Source of the DNA: a bacterium
GTDB taxonomy: Bacteria; Patescibacteriota; Microgenomatia; UBA8517
Direction: 5' to 3'
NCBI GenBank assembly: GCA_030583725.1
Contig: CP129472.1
Coordinates: 401,701-465,700 of the forward strand
DNA length: 64,000 bases
Part shown: in pieces, positions 2,800-59,035 of the stretch
Numbering within the stretch: position 1 is the stretch's first letter
Layout: every line of letters begins with the position of its first letter
Translations under genes and position numbers: made by a program
The notes under the pieces: model-generated
The model's input: only the letters and a program-made list of their open reading frames with translations
What the model was told of the DNA's origin: nothing
Databases searched by the model: none

Positions 2800-3779
2800 A
2801 ACCACAAAACACAACTATGATAAATAATTTCTGGAAAAAATTACCAAAACCATTTGTTGCACTTGCTCCCATGGAAGATGTTACTGACTTTGTTTTTAGA
2901 GAAGTTGTCTCAAAATATCTCCCAAGACCTGACGTATGTTTTACTGAATTTACGAACGTTGAAGCATTAAACTCTGCAGGTTTTGAAAGAACAATTCACA
3001 GATTTAAGTTCAGTAAAAAACAAAAACCAATCGTTGCCCAGATTTGGGGACTAAAACCTGATAATTATTACAAAACATCAAAACTAATTGCTGAACTTGG
3101 CTTCAACGGAATAGACGTTAATATGGGTTGCCCTGATAAAGCTGTTGTAAAAATTGGAGCCTGCTCTGCGCTTATTAATAATCAATCACTAGCAAATGAA
3201 ATTATTACTGCAACAAAAGAAGGTGCAGGAAAGCTACCCGTTAGCATAAAAACTAGACTTGGATTAAAAACGATTGTAACTGAAGAGTGGATTACTTTTT
3301 TACTCGAACATAAATTGGACGCAATCACGATACATGGCCGAACAGCAAAGCAAATGTCTGATGTACCAGCAGATTGGGATGAAATCGAAAAAGCCGTAGA
3401 CATTAGAAATAAAATATCACCCGAGACATTAATAATTGGGAACGGAGGCGTAAAAAATTATAACCATGGGATCGAATTATCAAAAAAACACAGAGTTGAT
3501 GGCGCAATGATTGCCACAGGGATACTCTCCAACCCTTGGGCTTTTGACAAAACCAACAAAATTAATAATTTTAACGACAACAAAGAAATTCTGATTAAAC
3601 ACTTAAATCTATATAGCAAAACAAACGAAAGCAATAAAGCATACGGAGTGATGAAAAAATTTTTTAAGATGTATATCAATAACTTTAAAGGATCAAGTGA
3701 TTTAAGAGCCTTACTTATGCAAACAAAAGATCCAGAAGAAGCAATTAAACATTTGACAAGATGGTCTAAAAAACATTAA
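2796..3779 (+). CDS. dus: tRNA-dihydrouridine synthase
   Basis: ALAPMEDVTDFVFR signature (LAPM.GVTD of the Dus family) in a TIM-barrel FMN enzyme layout. Overlaps mltG by 4 nt. Confidence 0.75.
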   Translation: MKPQNTTMINNFWKKLPKPFVALAPMEDVTDFVFREVVSKYLPRPDVCFTEFTNVEALNSAGFERTIHRFKFSKKQKPIVAQIWGLKPDNYYKTSKLIAELGFNGIDVNMGCPDKAVVKIGACSALINNQSLANEIITATKEGAGKLPVSIKTRLGLKTIVTEEWITFLLEHKLDAITIHGRTAKQMSDVPADWDEIEKAVDIRNKISPETLIIGNGGVKNYNHGIELSKKHRVDGAMIATGILSNPWAFDKTNKINNFNDNKEILIKHLNLYSKTNESNKAYGVMKKFFKMYINNFKGSSDLRALLMQTKDPEEAIKHLTRWSKKH

Positions 3780-47671: not shown

Positions 47672-48421
47672 TTAGTTCTTTGCCTCTTCTAAAACTGTTG
47701 CCGCTTCTGGGGCAGTTTCTGTCTTAGATTCTTCACCAGCAGGGCTTTCACCCTCAACAACTGTGGCTACTGCGTGATGTTCAAAATCTAAAGATCCAGA
47801 TTTTATCTTATTAACTGTCAAGAAAATTCCAACTCTTCCAGGAATTGGGCTTGAAAGTAATAGTTGATTGTTTTCTGCATCTATATCAACAACACGAGCA
47901 TTTTTAAATGTAACCTGAACTCCACCCATTCTACCCGCCATTCTCTTGCCTTTATAGACTCTACCTGGAGTTGTGGTCTGTCCTATTGATCCAGGAGCTC
48001 TGTGGCGATCACTTTGTCCGTGAGTCTTTGGCCCACCTCTAAAGTTATATCTTCTAACTCCACCAGCAAAACCTTTTCCTTTATTAACAGCAGTTACTGA
48101 AACAGTATCACCCTTTTTAAAGATATCAGAAACATTAATGATATCACCAACTTTGTAATTTGGTTCTGATGTCATTCTTACTTCTCTTACATATCTTGGA
48201 AAGTTTTTTTCTTTTGATTTGAGGTGGCCTTGAAGTGGTTTAGAAGTGTTTTTTGCTTTTCTGTTTCCGAATCCGAGTTGAATTGCCCAATAGCCATCAT
48301 TCTTTTCATTTTTAATTTGGGTAACTACACATGGGCCAAGTGTTACTTTTGTCACGGGAACTCTAGACCCGTCTATAAAAGTCTGTGTCATCTGTCCTTT
48401 TGTACCAAATAATGTTTTCAT
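47672..48421 (-). CDS. rplC: 50S ribosomal protein L3
   Basis: L3 family. It is not preceded by rpsJ here. Confidence 0.85.
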   Translation of the reverse strand: MKTLFGTKGQMTQTFIDGSRVPVTKVTLGPCVVTQIKNEKNDGYWAIQLGFGNRKAKNTSKPLQGHLKSKEKNFPRYVREVRMTSEPNYKVGDIINVSDIFKKGDTVSVTAVNKGKGFAGGVRRYNFRGGPKTHGQSDRHRAPGSIGQTTTPGRVYKGKRMAGRMGGVQVTFKNARVVDIDAENNQLLLSSPIPGRVGIFLTVNKIKSGSLDFEHHAVATVVEGESPAGEESKTETAPEAATVLEEAKN

Positions 48422-48437
48422 TTGCCGCGTGTCGTGT

Positions 48438-48472
48438 TTTAGAAAAAAATAAAAGCGCCGTAAAAGCGCTTA
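48438..48472 (-). terminator. terminator-like hairpin plus U-run in the rplC leader (candidate attenuator)
   Basis: The minus-strand RNA folds as AAGCGC-uuuuacg-GCGCUU followed by UUAUUUUUUUC. It lies between the promoter at 48539-48567 and the rplC ATG at 48421. Confidence 0.4.
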
Positions 48473-48524
48473 TCCTGCTTTTAGCATTCTTTCTTGAGGC
48501 TATCTTGTTAAATACACCTCCATA

Positions 48525-48569
48525 ATTTCTATTGGTGAATTATATCAAACTATATGACTTGTATCAAGC
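48525..48569 (-). promoter_or_regulatory. 45-bp repeated element copy 1, a near-consensus sigma70 promoter (TTGATA-N17-TATAAT) pointing at rplC
   Basis: Minus-strand reading gives -35 TTGATA (48567-48562), an exact 17-nt spacer and -10 TATAAT (48544-48539). About 110 nt upstream of rplC. Confidence 0.5.
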
Positions 48570-48835
48570 CACGCTTTCATGCTACACTTAGGCTCAAGAC
48601 GGGTATGGAAATTGTAACAAGCGTATTTAATGACGAAATTGTTATTGTCACAGGAAAGCCTGGAGATAAAACTATTCTTAGAACTCCACAACTTGGAGTA
48701 GCCCAAGCATTGGCCACTGCAAGGAACAATTTAGCAAGAACCAATCCTCTTGTTTGTTCAGATAACAATGAGAAAACTAAACCAGTTATGCCAAAAGTAT
48801 CTTTGGTAAGGTCAAATAATTAAATGAAGAGAAAA

Positions 48836-49057
48836 TTAACCTCTTCTCTCAGCACTACTATTTTGACCTTTTTCTTTCCTTTTTTCTAAAACTTCTTCGA
48901 CAGTTTCCTCTAATTGAGATCTTAATAATTCCTCTTTGGCTTCAGCACTTTCTAAAGCCAACCTAACAGTATCTTTTGAATAACCTGTTAAACCAGCCAA
49001 GAGAGAAATCTTAATTTCGTTAGGGATTTTTCTCAATTTATTAAAAACTACCTGCAT
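48836..49057 (-). CDS. small helix-turn-helix-like protein (hypothetical regulator)
   Basis: 73 aa. ISLLAGLTGYSKDTVRLAL resembles an HTH. It has its own TTGAAT-N18-TACTAT promoter. Its C-tail KGQNSSAERRG is paralogous to that of ORF 50477-50743. Confidence 0.35.
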   Translation of the reverse strand: MQVVFNKLRKIPNEIKISLLAGLTGYSKDTVRLALESAEAKEELLRSQLEETVEEVLEKRKEKGQNSSAERRG

Positions 49058-49138
49058 TTTATTATCAACAGATAGTACTCTCTTTTTTTTTTGAAATTCA
49101 AGAATTGTGATTTTTAATATTCCTGAGATAATATAAAT

Positions 49139-49723
49139 ATGTCCAACAAGAAAAATAAGGAAATCGAGATCCAGGTACAGGTTGAGAATATTAAAGGACT
49201 AAATAAGTTTCTTAGAGAAAAAGCAAAATTTATAAACAAAGAACATCAAGTAGATAAATACTTTTCCCCAAAAGATCGTAAGTTTTTAAAAGTCAGACCA
49301 GTAGTTGAGTGGCTTAGGCTACGAGATTCGTCGGATAAACAATCAATTAATTACAAAAATTGGCATCATGATAAAAATGGTAGAAGCCATTATTGTGACG
49401 AATATGAAACTCCTGTTGGAAATATGGAGCAAGTAGAGAAAATATTCAAATCGCTTGAGATAAAACCAATTGTTACTGTAGATAAAACAAGAAAAATATA
49501 TAAATACAAAGATTACGAAATTTCTATTGATTCCATTAAAGATTTAGGTAACTTTGTAGAAATTGAATATAAAGGTAAAAATACAACCAAAAGTCCAGCA
49601 AAAATCACAGAAGAAATGATTAAATTTTTAAAGGACCTAAATTGTGGAAAGATATCAAGAAATTATGTTGGCTACCCTTTTCAAATGTTATTTCCAAAAG
49701 AAGTAAAATACGAAATATTTTAA
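49139..49723 (+). CDS. CYTH-domain protein (triphosphate tunnel metalloenzyme / CyaB-like)
   Basis: N-terminal EIEIQVQV (E-x-E-x-K-like strand with Q at the Lys position), LRLR, DEYETPV and C-terminal FVEIEYKG acidic strands in CYTH order. 194 aa. Confidence 0.5.
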   Translation: MSNKKNKEIEIQVQVENIKGLNKFLREKAKFINKEHQVDKYFSPKDRKFLKVRPVVEWLRLRDSSDKQSINYKNWHHDKNGRSHYCDEYETPVGNMEQVEKIFKSLEIKPIVTVDKTRKIYKYKDYEISIDSIKDLGNFVEIEYKGKNTTKSPAKITEEMIKFLKDLNCGKISRNYVGYPFQMLFPKEVKYEIF

Positions 49724-49730
49724 TCAAAAA

Positions 49731-50372
49731 ATGCCAGATAATAATAACGAGAGGTTAAAATTATTAGAGAGGCAACCCGACTATGGAAAAGTAACAGTTT
49801 TAATTGGTCCAGATGGTGGAGGCAAAACTTACCTTTCAAATAAACTTCATGAAGATAATCCAGAAGCTATTTTAATTGATGGTACTCATCCACAAAACTG
49901 GCCTGTTTCAGATGAAAAGAAAAAGAGTCTTGCAAGATTAAAGGAAATTGGAGGTAATGATCCTAATTTTGATTATTATGGAATTTTAGGTTTAGAACTT
50001 CACAAAGTTATATATAGATTAGCAAAAGAAGGTAAAGATGTAATTGTAGACTCAGAACAAACTTTTAAATGGTTAATGTGGGAAGATATGAAAGGTAACT
50101 TAGACAAATCAATTCAAATACTAACAAGCAAAGAATTCAATGCAATTTTGCCAGATACAGTTAAGTACGTTGTTCCAGAAGCAGAAAGTTTTGATAAACA
50201 AGCAGAATTAATATGGGAACAGCAAAGCAGAAAATTACAATCAGAAGTAAGCCCTATTGACCCTAAAAATTTAGAGGAAGTTAAAACTAGACTTAAAGCT
50301 TCAGAAAATGTAATACTCGCACTTGAAAAGGTTGGAGTAATTGTTGAAGGAAAACCAAATTGGGTAAAATAA
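49731..50372 (+). CDS. P-loop NTPase, nucleoside/nucleotide-kinase-like
   Basis: Walker A VLIGPDGGGKTYL and a DVIVDSEQ Walker-B-like segment. 213 aa. The start lies 8 nt after the CYTH stop, indicating an operon pair. Confidence 0.45.
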   Translation: MPDNNNERLKLLERQPDYGKVTVLIGPDGGGKTYLSNKLHEDNPEAILIDGTHPQNWPVSDEKKKSLARLKEIGGNDPNFDYYGILGLELHKVIYRLAKEGKDVIVDSEQTFKWLMWEDMKGNLDKSIQILTSKEFNAILPDTVKYVVPEAESFDKQAELIWEQQSRKLQSEVSPIDPKNLEEVKTRLKASENVILALEKVGVIVEGKPNWVK

Positions 50373-50414
50373 ATTAATAACTAATTGGAATTTTAATAAT
50401 TACTCAATATAATC

Positions 50415-50459
50415 ATTTCTGATGGTGAATCAGATCAAACTATATGACTTGTATCAAGC
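50415..50459 (-). repeat. 45-bp repeated element copy 2 (degenerate promoter copy)
   Basis: 41 of 45 positions match copy 1. The -35 TTGATA and the 17-nt spacer are conserved, while the -10 is degraded to TCTGAT. Confidence 0.5.
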
Positions 50460-50476
50460 AATGGTTTTATAAAGTT

Positions 50477-50743
50477 TTAACTTCTTGCTTCAGTCCTACC
50501 ACCTTTTTGTTCAGCCTCAAGTTCTGCTTTGTATTTATTCATTTTGTCAATTAATGTTGGAGGTGGTTGTTCTCCACGACTTAACATACCTTCTACTAGT
50601 AATATAAAGGGTTTTCTAGAACGATCTTGTCTTTCTTTATATGTAGATAGACTGTCCCGTACACCTTTTGCAACATGTGCTATTATTCCAGAGCTCATTC
50701 CACCACCGCCTTGCCAAAAATAACGTTTACCCGACATTGCCAA
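50477..50743 (-). CDS. small hypothetical protein, paralogous to the HTH-like ORF
   Basis: 88 aa, possibly starting at the internal Met at 50698. TTGAAT-N17-TAATAT promoter upstream. C-tail QKGGRTEARS and the 3' nucleotides are homologous to ORF 48836-49057. Confidence 0.3.
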   Translation of the reverse strand: MAMSGKRYFWQGGGGMSSGIIAHVAKGVRDSLSTYKERQDRSRKPFILLVEGMLSRGEQPPPTLIDKMNKYKAELEAEQKGGRTEARS

Positions 50744-50815
50744 ATATTACTCTCTCTTTTTTTGAAATTCAACACACATATTAAAATCTTTGATTAAAGA
50801 TATTGTATAATCCAA

Positions 50816-51210
50816 ATGTATGAATCCGTAGGTATATTTAGCAGGACCAGGAAATCAATATGATCCAAGGAGGTCGATAGTTAAAAAAATAAAAGGTTTT
50901 AAATTTTATGATCCTGATACAGATTCTGATCAATCTTCATCAGAAACATTTTTCCCTCAAGATTTAACTGCAATCAAAAACTCAGAAATTTTAATTGCAA
51001 ACCCAGGCACTGCACCTGCAGAAGGAACATGGATTGAAATTGGATATTTTTACGCACTAAACACTAAAAAAGCTGGGGACTTTTGTAACAACTTGATAAT
51101 TATTTGGAACAAAGACAGAGTATCTTGGTCTATAGAATTTGTTAAAAAAACTGGCCATGTAGTTGGAACAGTTAAAGAAGCAATATCCAAACTCAGAGCG
51201 CTACACAATT
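50816..51210 (+). pseudogene. nucleoside 2-deoxyribosyltransferase-like gene with N-terminal +1 frameshift
   Basis: The frame from 50832 encodes VYLAGPGNQYD...PAEGTWIEIGYFYALNTKKAG (NDT-family YLAGP and E.G.A.A motifs) but has no start codon. An ATG at 50816 in the adjacent frame gives MYESV then stops. Deleting one nt near 50831 restores MYESVVYLAGPG. Confidence 0.5.
50984..51066. repeat. 83-bp perfect direct repeat, copy A (inside the NDT-like gene)
   Basis: Identical to 52258-52340 by eye over all 83 nt. Confidence 0.7.
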
Positions 51211-51285
51211 AGTCGTTAATCTAAATAGATCCAGTAAAGATATATCTATTGTGAATCGGTACAAGGATGTTGTGTTTAGTGACTT

Positions 51286-52038: not shown

Positions 52039-52257
52039 TTAAATAAGACTAAAGTGTTTAAATACATCAATTATTCCATTTTCATCCACACTTGGAGCTA
52101 TATATGAATTATTACTTCCTTTAGACAAGACAAGTTTTTTTAACTCTTCTTGTGAATTTCCCATAGCTGAAACAAACTTACAAAGCTCAATAAATTTCCA
52201 ATCTCTTGTACTATCACCGACCCCAAGCATGTTTTCAAAAGATATATTTGTTTCTTT
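52039..52257 (-). pseudogene. C-terminal fragment of a Cof-type HAD phosphatase
   Basis: VGDSTRDWKFIE...AMGNSQEELKKLVLSKGSNNSY...ENGIIDVFKHFSLI aligns to the last 70 aa of Cof-like hydrolases (GDxxND motif III, AMGNA). The first 200 aa are missing. The 5' end abuts copy B of the 83-bp repeat. Confidence 0.55.
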
Positions 52258-52340
52258 AGAAATTTTAATTGCAAACCCAGGCACTGCACCTGCAGAAGGA
52301 ACATGGATTGAAATTGGATATTTTTACGCACTAAACACTA
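52258..52340. repeat. 83-bp perfect direct repeat, copy B (rearrangement junction)
   Basis: Identical to 50984-51066. It supplies the spurious first 9 codons of ORF 52039-52284. Confidence 0.7.
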
Positions 52341-54472: not shown

Positions 54473-54775
54473 TTACATCTTAATTTCTATGGAGACACCT
54501 GCTGGAAGATCCATATTGCCTAATGAATCTACTGTTCTTGGGGTTGGGTCAATTATATCAATTAGTCTTTTATGAATTAAAACTTCATAATGTTCTTGAG
54601 CATCTTTATCTGTAAATGGAGATTCTTTAACGGACATCAAGGTCCTATCAGTTGGGAGTGGGGTTGGTCCAGAAATTTTAGCACCTGAAGCTAGGGCGAC
54701 ATCTATAATCTTTGATGCTGCCTCATCTATTACTCTATGATCGTAAGCTTTTAGCTTAACTCTAAGTCTTTGCAT
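54473..54775 (-). CDS. rpsJ: 30S ribosomal protein S10
   Basis: RLRVKLKAYDHRVID...HKRLIDIIDPTP is the canonical S10 sequence. It directly follows tuf, but about 6 kb separate it from rplC. Confidence 0.9.
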   Translation of the reverse strand: MQRLRVKLKAYDHRVIDEAASKIIDVALASGAKISGPTPLPTDRTLMSVKESPFTDKDAQEHYEVLIHKRLIDIIDPTPRTVDSLGNMDLPAGVSIEIKM

Positions 54776-58678: not shown

Positions 58679-58930
58679 TCAACCTTCTTTACTTCGATTA
58701 AATTTTAATCTCGCTATAATTCCGACTTCTCCATGTAAAAAAGTCCATGTTGATGGATCAACCCAAGTCCTTTCGACCGAAGAACCCGCCCCAACTGATG
58801 CCCCAACTTCGAGGTCTTTCTTTTTAATATCATTATAGTCTGACAGTTCACTAACAGATTGAGCTCCTTTTGGAACATATGTCTTTTTACGATCTGATGT
58901 TGATCTTGATGTAGTAAACGATATAGGCAT
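58679..58930 (-). CDS. small hypothetical ORF between rpsG and fusA
   Basis: 83 aa, Ser/Thr-rich and co-directional with the operon. Coding status uncertain. Confidence 0.2.
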   Translation of the reverse strand: MPISFTTSRSTSDRKKTYVPKGAQSVSELSDYNDIKKKDLEVGASVGAGSSVERTWVDPSTWTFLHGEVGIIARLKFNRSKEG

Positions 58931-59035
58931 AATGAAGCGATATTACTCTCTCTTCGGTTAAAATTCAATCAGTAAACCTTTTTTCTCCACCCTCTAAAAT
59001 TTGATTTCAGTTTATGTAGTGAATTCAATTAAAAT

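Follow-up and report, generated by a model that had tools for sequence, protein, structure and literature searches.

The window analysed here is a stretch of 64,000 nucleotides (nt) of contig CP129472.1, with a low GC content (~34%), from a member of the Microgenomates/Woesebacteria group of Patescibacteria. We examined a promoter-like element, R1, that occurs twice in the spacer between the ribosomal protein genes rpsJ and rplC of this window. The ribosomal protein L3 encoded by its rplC showed 76-78% identity at most to that of the metagenome-assembled genomes (MAGs) of the group. The same DNA is contained in an NCBI MAG (locus tags QY322_02570-02585), and the Logan contig L001 is 100% identical to the window across 13.3 kb. 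On the minus strand, the genes are arranged in the order rpoC, rpsL, rpsG, an open reading frame (ORF) of 83 amino acids (aa), fusA, tuf and rpsJ (54473-54775). rpsJ stays with tuf, and it is parted by a variable spacer from rplC: about 6 kb of genes in mixed orientation come after rpsJ, and then rplC, rplD, rplW, rplB and further genes follow on the minus strand. Read toward rplC, this spacer carries in tandem the promoter R2b, ORF88 and the copy R1b, then a 29-nt filler, a CYTH–kinase gene pair on the opposite strand, the promoter R2a and ORF73, 255 nt of unique sequence, and finally the copy R1a and the leader of rplC (Table 1). We consider it likely that the R1 repeat represents the conserved promoter of rplC together with a dead, truncated copy of it, which was left as a recombination scar, and that the small genes adjacent to the two copies are unrelated. 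An earlier note on this DNA had read the locus as a segmental duplication of a unit of promoter, small gene and promoter with paralogous genes, a reading that was lost on alignment, in which the two units were alike only in two short promoter segments. Local BLAST and Smith-Waterman comparisons replaced a global MAFFT alignment of the two units, the lengths of which are too unequal. For the comparison with other genomes, 80 related loci were retrieved via L3 and the region 5' of rplC was compared; what is reported below on sequence relationships, conservation and gene contexts was observed directly in these comparisons.

Table 1. Features discussed in the text and their positions in the window.
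Feature	Position	Strand	Description
rplC (L3)	47672..48421	-	First gene of the transcription unit predicted to be served by R1a
rplC leader	48422..48532	-	~110 nt; mini-ORF, GGAGG hairpin, intrinsic terminator-like hairpin
R1a	48522..48580	-	Putative working rplC promoter and first ~20 transcribed bases; -35 TTGATA 48567-48562; extended -10 TGaTATAAT, TATAAT 48544-48539
255-nt spacer	48581..48835		ORF73 to R1a; putative plus-strand ORF of 72 aa (48605-48823), also called in Logan contigs
ORF73	48836..49057	-	Three-helix protein (predicted); rare family MQVVF...TGYSKD.VRLALE
R2a	49069..49101	-	Predicted promoter of ORF73; TTGAAT-N18-TACTAT, GA-rich spacer; 29/33 identity to R2b
Cargo block	49105..50382	+	Own predicted promoter; CYTH/CyaB-like gene (49139-49723) and P-loop kinase-like gene (49731-50372); Pfam and NCBIfam matches
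Filler	50383..50411		29 nt from cargo end to R1b; adjoining similarity to the ORF73 interior
R1b	50412..50470	-	Presumed vestigial rplC promoter copy; -35 TTGATA 50457-50452 intact; -10 TCTGAT 50434-50429; 7 nt past the ORF88 stop
ORF88	50477..50737	-	86 aa from ATG; conserved small protein in the rpsJ-rplC spacer
R2b	50741..50772	-	Predicted promoter of ORF88; TTGAAT-N17-TAATAT
ORF83	58679..58930	-	83 aa, between rpsG and fusA, behind R2c
R2c	58940..58968	-	Predicted promoter of the 83-aa ORF between rpsG and fusA; TTGAAT-N17-TAATAT, AGAGAGAGTA spacer

The repeat had been described as a 45-bp element at 48525-48569 and 50415-50459 with four mismatches, and we found exactly four. The similarity reaches further, over 59 nt (50/59 identical), and contains a perfect core of 26 nt, which had no match in 100 shuffles of the window. 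The reading of both copies in the earlier note was also borne out. On the minus strand, copy 1 (R1a) is TTGATA-N17-TATAAT with TG upstream, at -15/-14, and is the top promoter match in 47.5-55 kb (11/12), and copy 2 (R1b) retained the -35 box and the spacer but has a -10 box degraded to TCTGAT. The CYTH gene and the P-loop kinase-like gene lie between the copies on the plus strand, as had been stated. Each copy had further been placed downstream of a small minus-strand ORF. Both ORFs exist, one of 73 aa and one at 50477-50743 of 88 aa from a TTG, or of 86 aa from the ATG at 50737 that its homologues indicate, but their spacing is unequal, with 255 nt from the stop codon to R1 for ORF73 and 7 nt for ORF88.

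R1a is aimed at rplC, as had been proposed, and its -35 box, 17-bp spacer, extended -10 box and TTCACC start are kept directly 5' of rplC in the relatives. The conserved layout of the relatives is TTGnnn-N17-TGnTATAAT followed by TTCACC..TAGAA, and this start region is common to them and the window. Sequence orthologous to R1a was found directly 5' of rplC in L003, L004, L005, L006, L008, L078, L086, L087, L093 and L096, of which L086 was recovered, together with L087, by a metagenome scan with the R1 DNA pattern. When the spacing was allowed to vary, TTGnnn-N16-18-TATAAT was present within 300 nt 5' of rplC in 36 of the 80 loci, nearly all closer relatives included. An alignment of R1a with the promoters of L003, L086, L087 and L093 runs position by position and takes in the arm GAAAGCGT(T/G)GC 5' of the -35 box, and in L096 an identity of 86% extends from the spacer (48551) through the leader into rplC. 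The search of other genomes for the element that the earlier note had called for showed R1 at rplC in the relatives in a single copy each, and self-BLAST of the region upstream of rplC across the 80 loci detected no promoter duplication besides that of the window. Because R1 is conserved 5' of rplC in relatives, in a single copy each, we regard it as the native sigma-70-type promoter of the rplC (S10/spc) ribosomal-protein operon, and R1a would be its working copy in the window.

On the other hand, R1b shows the features of a duplicate in decay, as the earlier note had suggested from its degraded -10 box: in addition to its 50/59 identity to R1a and the TCTGAT box, most of the differences are derived. 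Nine differences between the copies were polarised with the promoters of L003, L087, L093 and L005, and seven were derived in R1b and two in R1a, both changes in the -10 box being among the seven. Selection on R1a but not on R1b would be expected to leave such a pattern. In the -10 box of R1b, the A of positions -11 and -9 has given way to C and G, respectively; a sigma-70-type -10 hexamer would carry the -11 A together with the -7 T, and R1b was negative in this test. Open-complex formation at sigma-70 promoters cannot do without the -11 A, and for this reason we take R1b to be dead and consider it unlikely that an antisense transcript runs from it across the kinase gene. The similarity between the copies ends ~20 nt 3' of the -10 box, at the ATG of a mini-ORF in the rplC leader, and R1b is cut at about +20. 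We infer that R1b is a non-functional vestige that was severed from the leader. At 50418-50434 on the minus strand, R1b reads TCTGAT-TCACC-ATCAGA, a palindrome that is an imperfect repeat in R1a.

The distance between rpsJ and rplC is usually a few bases in bacteria. Among the related loci, the gap was 75-250 nt in 46/72 and held unrelated cargo of 0.45-4.4 kb in 23/72, and this cargo differed between genomes, comprising TlyA-like methyltransferases, epimerases, membrane proteins and an IS200-like gene. The rpsG–fusA gap was likewise variable in the related loci, from about 0 to 2.7 kb. The gene order of the island in the window is unlike that of L083 and L093. From these comparisons, the rpsJ–rplC spacer is best regarded as a rearrangement hot spot. 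The two adjacencies of the window, in turn, occur separately in relatives. An ORF88 homologue is followed in L093, after ~25 nt, by GAAAGCGTTGC-TTGATACAA...TATAAT, and the same adjacency of ORF88 and R1 is found in L086, where ORF88 is truncated. The succession of ORF73 family, R1, leader and rplC is found in L096/97, with a leader 86% identical to that of the window and the same MEVYLTR* mini-ORF. In the window both adjacencies stand in tandem with the CYTH–kinase pair between them, which points to duplication or recombination in this highly variable spacer. We consider that the R1 duplication arose when the spacer was rearranged: most likely a segment containing the promoter would have been duplicated, or two arrangement variants would have undergone unequal or illegitimate recombination, and redundant parts would then have been lost or replaced while the cut-off R1b decayed. 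Tandem duplication with later losses, template switching and recombination with DNA of a related strain are the candidate routes that we deduce, and the duplication appears to be private to the genome of the window.

The cargo block between the copies has ~86% nucleotide homology to L088-L090, and this homology is limited to the block; the flanks there differ. The limits of the cargo fall directly between R2a on one side and the filler with R1b on the other. The CYTH–kinase pair also sits in other contexts in L091 and L092, which are other Patescibacteria. In two close relatives, L089 (1426-1701) and L090 (~1328-1357), a TlyA/FtsJ-like methyltransferase gene lies 3' of the pair, and in L014, L017, L020 and L021 the rpsJ–rplC gap is itself occupied by a gene of this kind. 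Next to the cargo, positions 50381-50405 are 21/25 identical to the ORF73 interior at 48910-48934 (P about 0.003 in shuffles, post hoc), and the filler is possibly a templated insertion at a rearrangement junction. On the other side of ORF73, homologue searches with the 72-aa ORF and the whole 255-nt spacer found none; a weak tblastx match of this spacer to an antisense frame of rplC was discarded, as the window's own rplC gave none. No integrase, recombinase or transposase was found among the ORFs of the insert and island in the Pfam, NCBIfam, PHROG and PADLOC searches, and searches of the same region for defence systems, phage and mobility genes were negative. An insertion sequence or transposon was rejected: there is no transposase, no terminal inverted repeats were reported at the ends of the insert, and the repeat is 59 nt long and imperfect, where a target-site duplication would be exact and of 2-15 bp.

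The second pair of similar segments lies upstream of the two small genes. The shared upstream promoter region claimed in the earlier note is real, and R2a and R2b are alike at 29 of 33 positions with one indel. A third copy, R2c, is identical to R2b at 25 of 29 positions from the -35 through the -10 box, and the motif RGAGAGWGTAMTAT occurs three times in the 64 kb against 0.14 expected. R2b is conserved 5' of the ORF88 homologues of L083, L084, L085, L086 and L093. R2 and the start of ORF73 are orthologous in L093 (82.7% across 75 nt), R2-like sequence precedes ORF73-family genes in L094 and L096, and R2-like sequence with the same GAGAGAGAGTAATAT box precedes the ORF83 homologue of L078. At the ORF88 loci, the similarity to the window begins at the -35 box of R2 and stops at the stop codon. 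The ORF88 ATG lies 6-7 nt past the R2 -10 box in homologous loci (6 nt in the window), and the mRNA is accordingly predicted to be leaderless. We concluded that R2 is, as far as conservation indicates, an older promoter class with an unusually conserved GA-rich spacer, which would serve three unrelated small genes with mostly leaderless mRNAs. Because a third copy exists, and because R2 precedes both gene families in relatives with a single R1 (L093, L096), we regard R2 as separate from the R1 duplication and not as its by-product. The A-run at 49079-49088 in the R2a spacer is 10 nt long in the window and 9 nt long in L002, an otherwise identical contig from another sample (DRR779146), where the R2a spacer is 17 instead of 18 nt; this may be a homopolymer sequencing error or true length variation.

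The genes behind these promoters have little in common. ORF88 has four homologues at 67-80% identity and remoter ones in L093 and L096. Searches of Pfam, NCBIfam and PHROG gave no protein-family match to it, a scan of metagenomes with the ORF88 family profile returned nothing, and its predicted structure is a helical hairpin of low confidence. ORF73 had no homologue by word-indexed search, but a full HMMER scan found three at 40-47% identity. These occupy the rpsJ–rplC spacer behind R2-like promoters in L093, L094/95 and L096/97: R2 precedes the homologue in L093, the homologue lies immediately past rpsJ in L094/95, and two tandem family members stand directly 5' of R1 in L096/97. The tandem genes of L096 (964-1164 and 1181-1387) encode 66 and 68 aa, and the first has an R2 promoter. 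The description of ORF73 as helix-turn-helix (HTH)-like in the earlier note is unproven: no Pfam, NCBIfam or PHROG domain was found, and the best Foldseek matches were homeodomain/POU HTH folds with E>0.6. The AlphaFold model of ORF73 has three helices at a pLDDT of 84. The note had also taken the C-terminal tails of ORF73 and ORF88 as homologous, which we could not substantiate. The best local DNA alignment was 17/23, and dinucleotide shuffles gave P=0.09 when the tails were taken alone and P=0.78 when the entire interiors were aligned. BLASTP of ORF73 against ORF88 gave no match, and profile-profile comparison (hhalign) gave E=0.62 and E=0.22, the latter aligning only the last 9 residues. 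Homology between ORF73 and ORF88 is undetectable, and we regard the two genes as unrelated on this comparison. ORF83, in the rpsG–fusA gap, has a homologue in the same gap of L078 (4778-4999) at 47% identity.

These results bear on the idea that one unit of promoter, small gene and promoter was duplicated once, with ORF73 and ORF88 as diverged paralogues. On the one hand, R2 and R1 are colinear in both units, and a Gly/Ser-rich tail ...E(A/R)R(G/S) ends both proteins, exactly the 9 residues that hhalign aligned. On the other hand, the interiors are without similarity in DNA or protein, the tails do not stand out from the shuffles, the distance from stop codon to R1 differs between 7 and 255 nt, R2 has a third copy elsewhere, and both units of R2 and gene are already present in relatives with a single R1. 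Moreover, the repeats are 85-88% identical while the interiors are dissimilar, which uniform divergence of one unit would not yield, and we consider this idea improbable. The direct repeats may also be viewed as attL/attR-like, R1a and R1b being the ends of a small circle (CYTH–kinase–ORF73) that carried a promoter-like site and entered the rplC promoter, either through site-specific recombination or through one RecA crossover in the 26-nt core. An insert of 1.83 kb between direct repeats, a perfect core between diverged arms (P=0.03 under uniform decay) and the occurrence of the CYTH–kinase pair in other genomic contexts agree with integration, and the minimal segment for RecA recombination is about the length of this core. 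However, neither the insert nor its surroundings hold an integrase, recombinase or transposase, ORF73 is a long-standing resident of the spacer in relatives and not imported cargo, no relative with spacer cargo has flanking promoter repeats, and the arms are still ~73% similar, which fits the decay of a duplicate. Integration of a circle is accordingly given little credence here.

The preferred reading, a promoter with a decayed copy, has also to be weighed against the view that R1b still acts: it might start weak antisense transcription across the kinase gene, serve as decoy or operator, or insulate the convergent kinase gene and ORF88 from each other. Its -35 box and spacer are perfectly kept over 26 nt, it lies between two convergent genes, and four substitutions around its -10 box create the palindrome TCTGAT-N5-ATCAGA. 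Set against this are the missing essential A at -11, a palindrome within chance (P 0.04-0.11), a hairpin of just 6 bp that has no U-run and was negative in the terminator scan, and the fact that the changes are mostly derived in R1b, as under relaxed constraint; a functional R1b is very unlikely. For an assembly artefact, in which the contig would join two strain variants of the spacer (ORF88-to-R1 and ORF73-to-R1), speak the separate presence of both adjacencies in relatives and the break of a Logan contig at a perfect 83-nt repeat in the island. Nevertheless, an assembler would not join at R1a/R1b, which are only 85% identical with unique flanks; the junction is outside shared sequence, the path from R1b through the filler to the cargo is unique, and L001 spans R1a, the cargo, R1b and ORF88 without a difference. 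Because the junctions are in unique sequence and a second assembly agrees, we rejected a chimera, which has next to no probability.

Several points weigh against the reading of R1b as a scar. R1a is taken as active and R1b as silent on the basis of sequence only. The perfect core exceeds the length predicted under uniform decay, at the P value given above; a crossover inside it, gene conversion or some remaining constraint could be the cause. The perfect palindrome around the -10 box of R1b is not significant at P 0.04-0.11 and leaves a small doubt about a new function. The order of events is a deduction that the relatives pull in two directions: L096, the closest by L3 identity, favours ORF73-to-R1 as the native arrangement, whereas L093 and L086 favour ORF88-to-R1. 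A conserved block of YunG, R2 and ORF73, looked for as a sign of tandem duplication and random loss, was not found, the two neighbouring genes being unrelated. In addition, the reads of L001 may be the same as those of the window, so that its confirmation of the R1b junction is weakly independent.

Further traces of rearrangement lie in the island. A perfect 83-nt direct repeat occurs at 50984-51066 and 52258-52340, and the end of L001 falls within it. The repeated segment comes from the interior of a nucleoside 2-deoxyribosyltransferase-like (NDT) gene and was copied beside the stop codon of a 254-aa ORF, and it may mark a second, very recent rearrangement junction of similar style. The NDT-like gene itself (50817-51212, plus strand) is probably a pseudogene, as its codon 4 is an in-frame TAG (50826-50828) and another start is lacking; its orthologue in L083 is intact (128 aa). 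Next to the 83-nt repeat, an 81-aa ORF (52039-52284, minus strand) corresponds only to the C-terminal end of HAD-type phosphatases (Pfam Hydrolase_3, positions 194-254 of 255) and is a gene fragment.

Downstream of R1a, the rplC leader begins near its 5' end with the mini-ORF ATGGAGGTG..., which encodes MEVYLTR* in 7 codons (48523-48500). In single-sequence folds, the GGAGG of this mini-ORF pairs with a CCUC directly past its stop codon, and the terminator scan and the folds placed a terminator-like hairpin with a U-run at 48471-48443, ~21 nt 5' of the rplC ATG (48421). A mini-ORF of 6-8 codons beginning with MEV was found in 14 relatives, with an identical peptide in L096. In 49/80 loci, a GC hairpin with a T-run was found no more than 130 nt from the rplC ATG. 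The leader box AUGGAGGUG is invariant in the relatives, and its CCUC/CCAC partner changes register. Rfam gave no match in the window at the gathering threshold and chance-level matches alone at E up to 10, and RNAalifold on a MAFFT alignment of eight leaders gave no meaningful consensus, the terminators being misaligned. Shine-Dalgarno (SD) sequences are nearly absent from the genes of the window, and a -10-like box lies 6-10 nt 5' of the ATG in many of them (rplC, rplD, tuf, fusA, ORF254, PRT and others), which suggests that leaderless mRNAs are widespread and that individual promoters exist within the "operon". Against this general background, rplC stands out by its invariant GGAGGUG and its long leader. 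The leader might act as an attenuator, of either the leader-peptide or the ribosomal-protein type, or as an SD-like stabiliser. In a sister group (L003, L004, L078, L086, L087, L093), a short leader without a terminator is 5' of rplC, reading TTCACCCTTAGAATC and then ATGATGATG..., an upstream ORF. This ORF enters the rplC start out of frame in L003 and L086, and in L086 it is 35 aa long (2961-3068).

Taken alone, the duplicated element is an ordinary scar, and its value lies in marking the start of rplC transcription in an uncultured lineage of Patescibacteria. It also teaches caution, as short repeated promoters beside small ORFs need not imply paralogous genes. Perhaps worth more are the by-products: a conserved leader of rplC, the R2 class along with the three families of small proteins behind it, and gaps in the ribosomal cluster that accept cargo. 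rpsJ and rplC are among the most conserved gene pairs of bacteria, and here up to 6 kb of shuffled cargo lies between them; the leader and the R2 class are two conserved regulatory sequences without annotation. A joint reading of these parts is possible, and we offer it tentatively, as one that may well be wrong: the ribosomal supercluster would consist of separately promoted pieces with cargo slots and two regulatory devices, and the duplicated promoter would be an intermediate. In such a scheme, the gaps of the Microgenomates supercluster (rpsJ|rplC and rpsG|fusA) would be slots that accept cargo and are prone to recombination. One device would be an undescribed rplC leader, in which a near-leaderless MEVxxxx mini-ORF overlaps the invariant GGAGGUG, complementary to the anti-SD, and is followed by an intrinsic terminator; it would sense the availability of ribosomes or ribosomal proteins and attenuate the S10/spc operon. 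The other device, the R2 class, would co-regulate the lineage-specific small proteins of the ORF73, ORF88 and ORF83 families, which always travel with ribosomal genes and may be ribosome-associated. The duplicated promoter would then be an intermediate of gene-order change in a slot, caught in the act.

In comparison with known systems, the rplC leader would be attenuator-like in the style of the S10 operon leader of Escherichia coli (L4-mediated attenuation and translational control), yet a member of no described family. Both have a promoter, a structured leader and an intrinsic terminator just 5' of the first gene. They differ in that the unit here begins at rplC, not rpsJ, and in that the leader of the window is ~110 nt with the invariant AUGGAGGUG box or the 7-codon mini-ORF; there is no sequence or Rfam similarity between the two. 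The trp and pyrBI leader-peptide attenuators, a possible parallel, likewise have a short ORF at the 5' end ahead of a terminator, but the mini-ORF of the window has no run of regulatory codons. A further possible parallel is the STAB-SD of cryIIIA of Bacillus thuringiensis, which is similar in having a perfect SD-like GGAGGUG near the 5' end and no start codon at the right distance. In a survey of ribosomal-protein leaders, the sole leader before rplC was the L4 r-leader of Archaeoglobi, upstream of rplC-rplD-rplW-rplB, and neither candidate phyla radiation bacteria nor Microgenomates have an entry in it (Eckert and Weinberg 2020, PMC7247131). That leader is also a candidate cis-regulatory element immediately 5' of rplC, but it is archaeal and has another structure.

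For the R1 repeat itself, the closest known category is that of duplication or recombination scars with a decaying promoter copy, whether they arise by tandem duplication followed by loss or by Campbell-type events. In such scars, a short native segment stands as direct repeats on both sides of DNA that was inserted or rearranged, one copy is selected while the other gathers disabling changes, and a mobility gene is unneeded, all of which resembles the window. The window differs in that the duplicated segment is just 59 nt, a core promoter with ~20 nt of leader, and in that the junction has a 29-nt filler resembling the interior of a nearby gene. With these differences in detail, we regard the R1 repeat as an ordinary example of this category.

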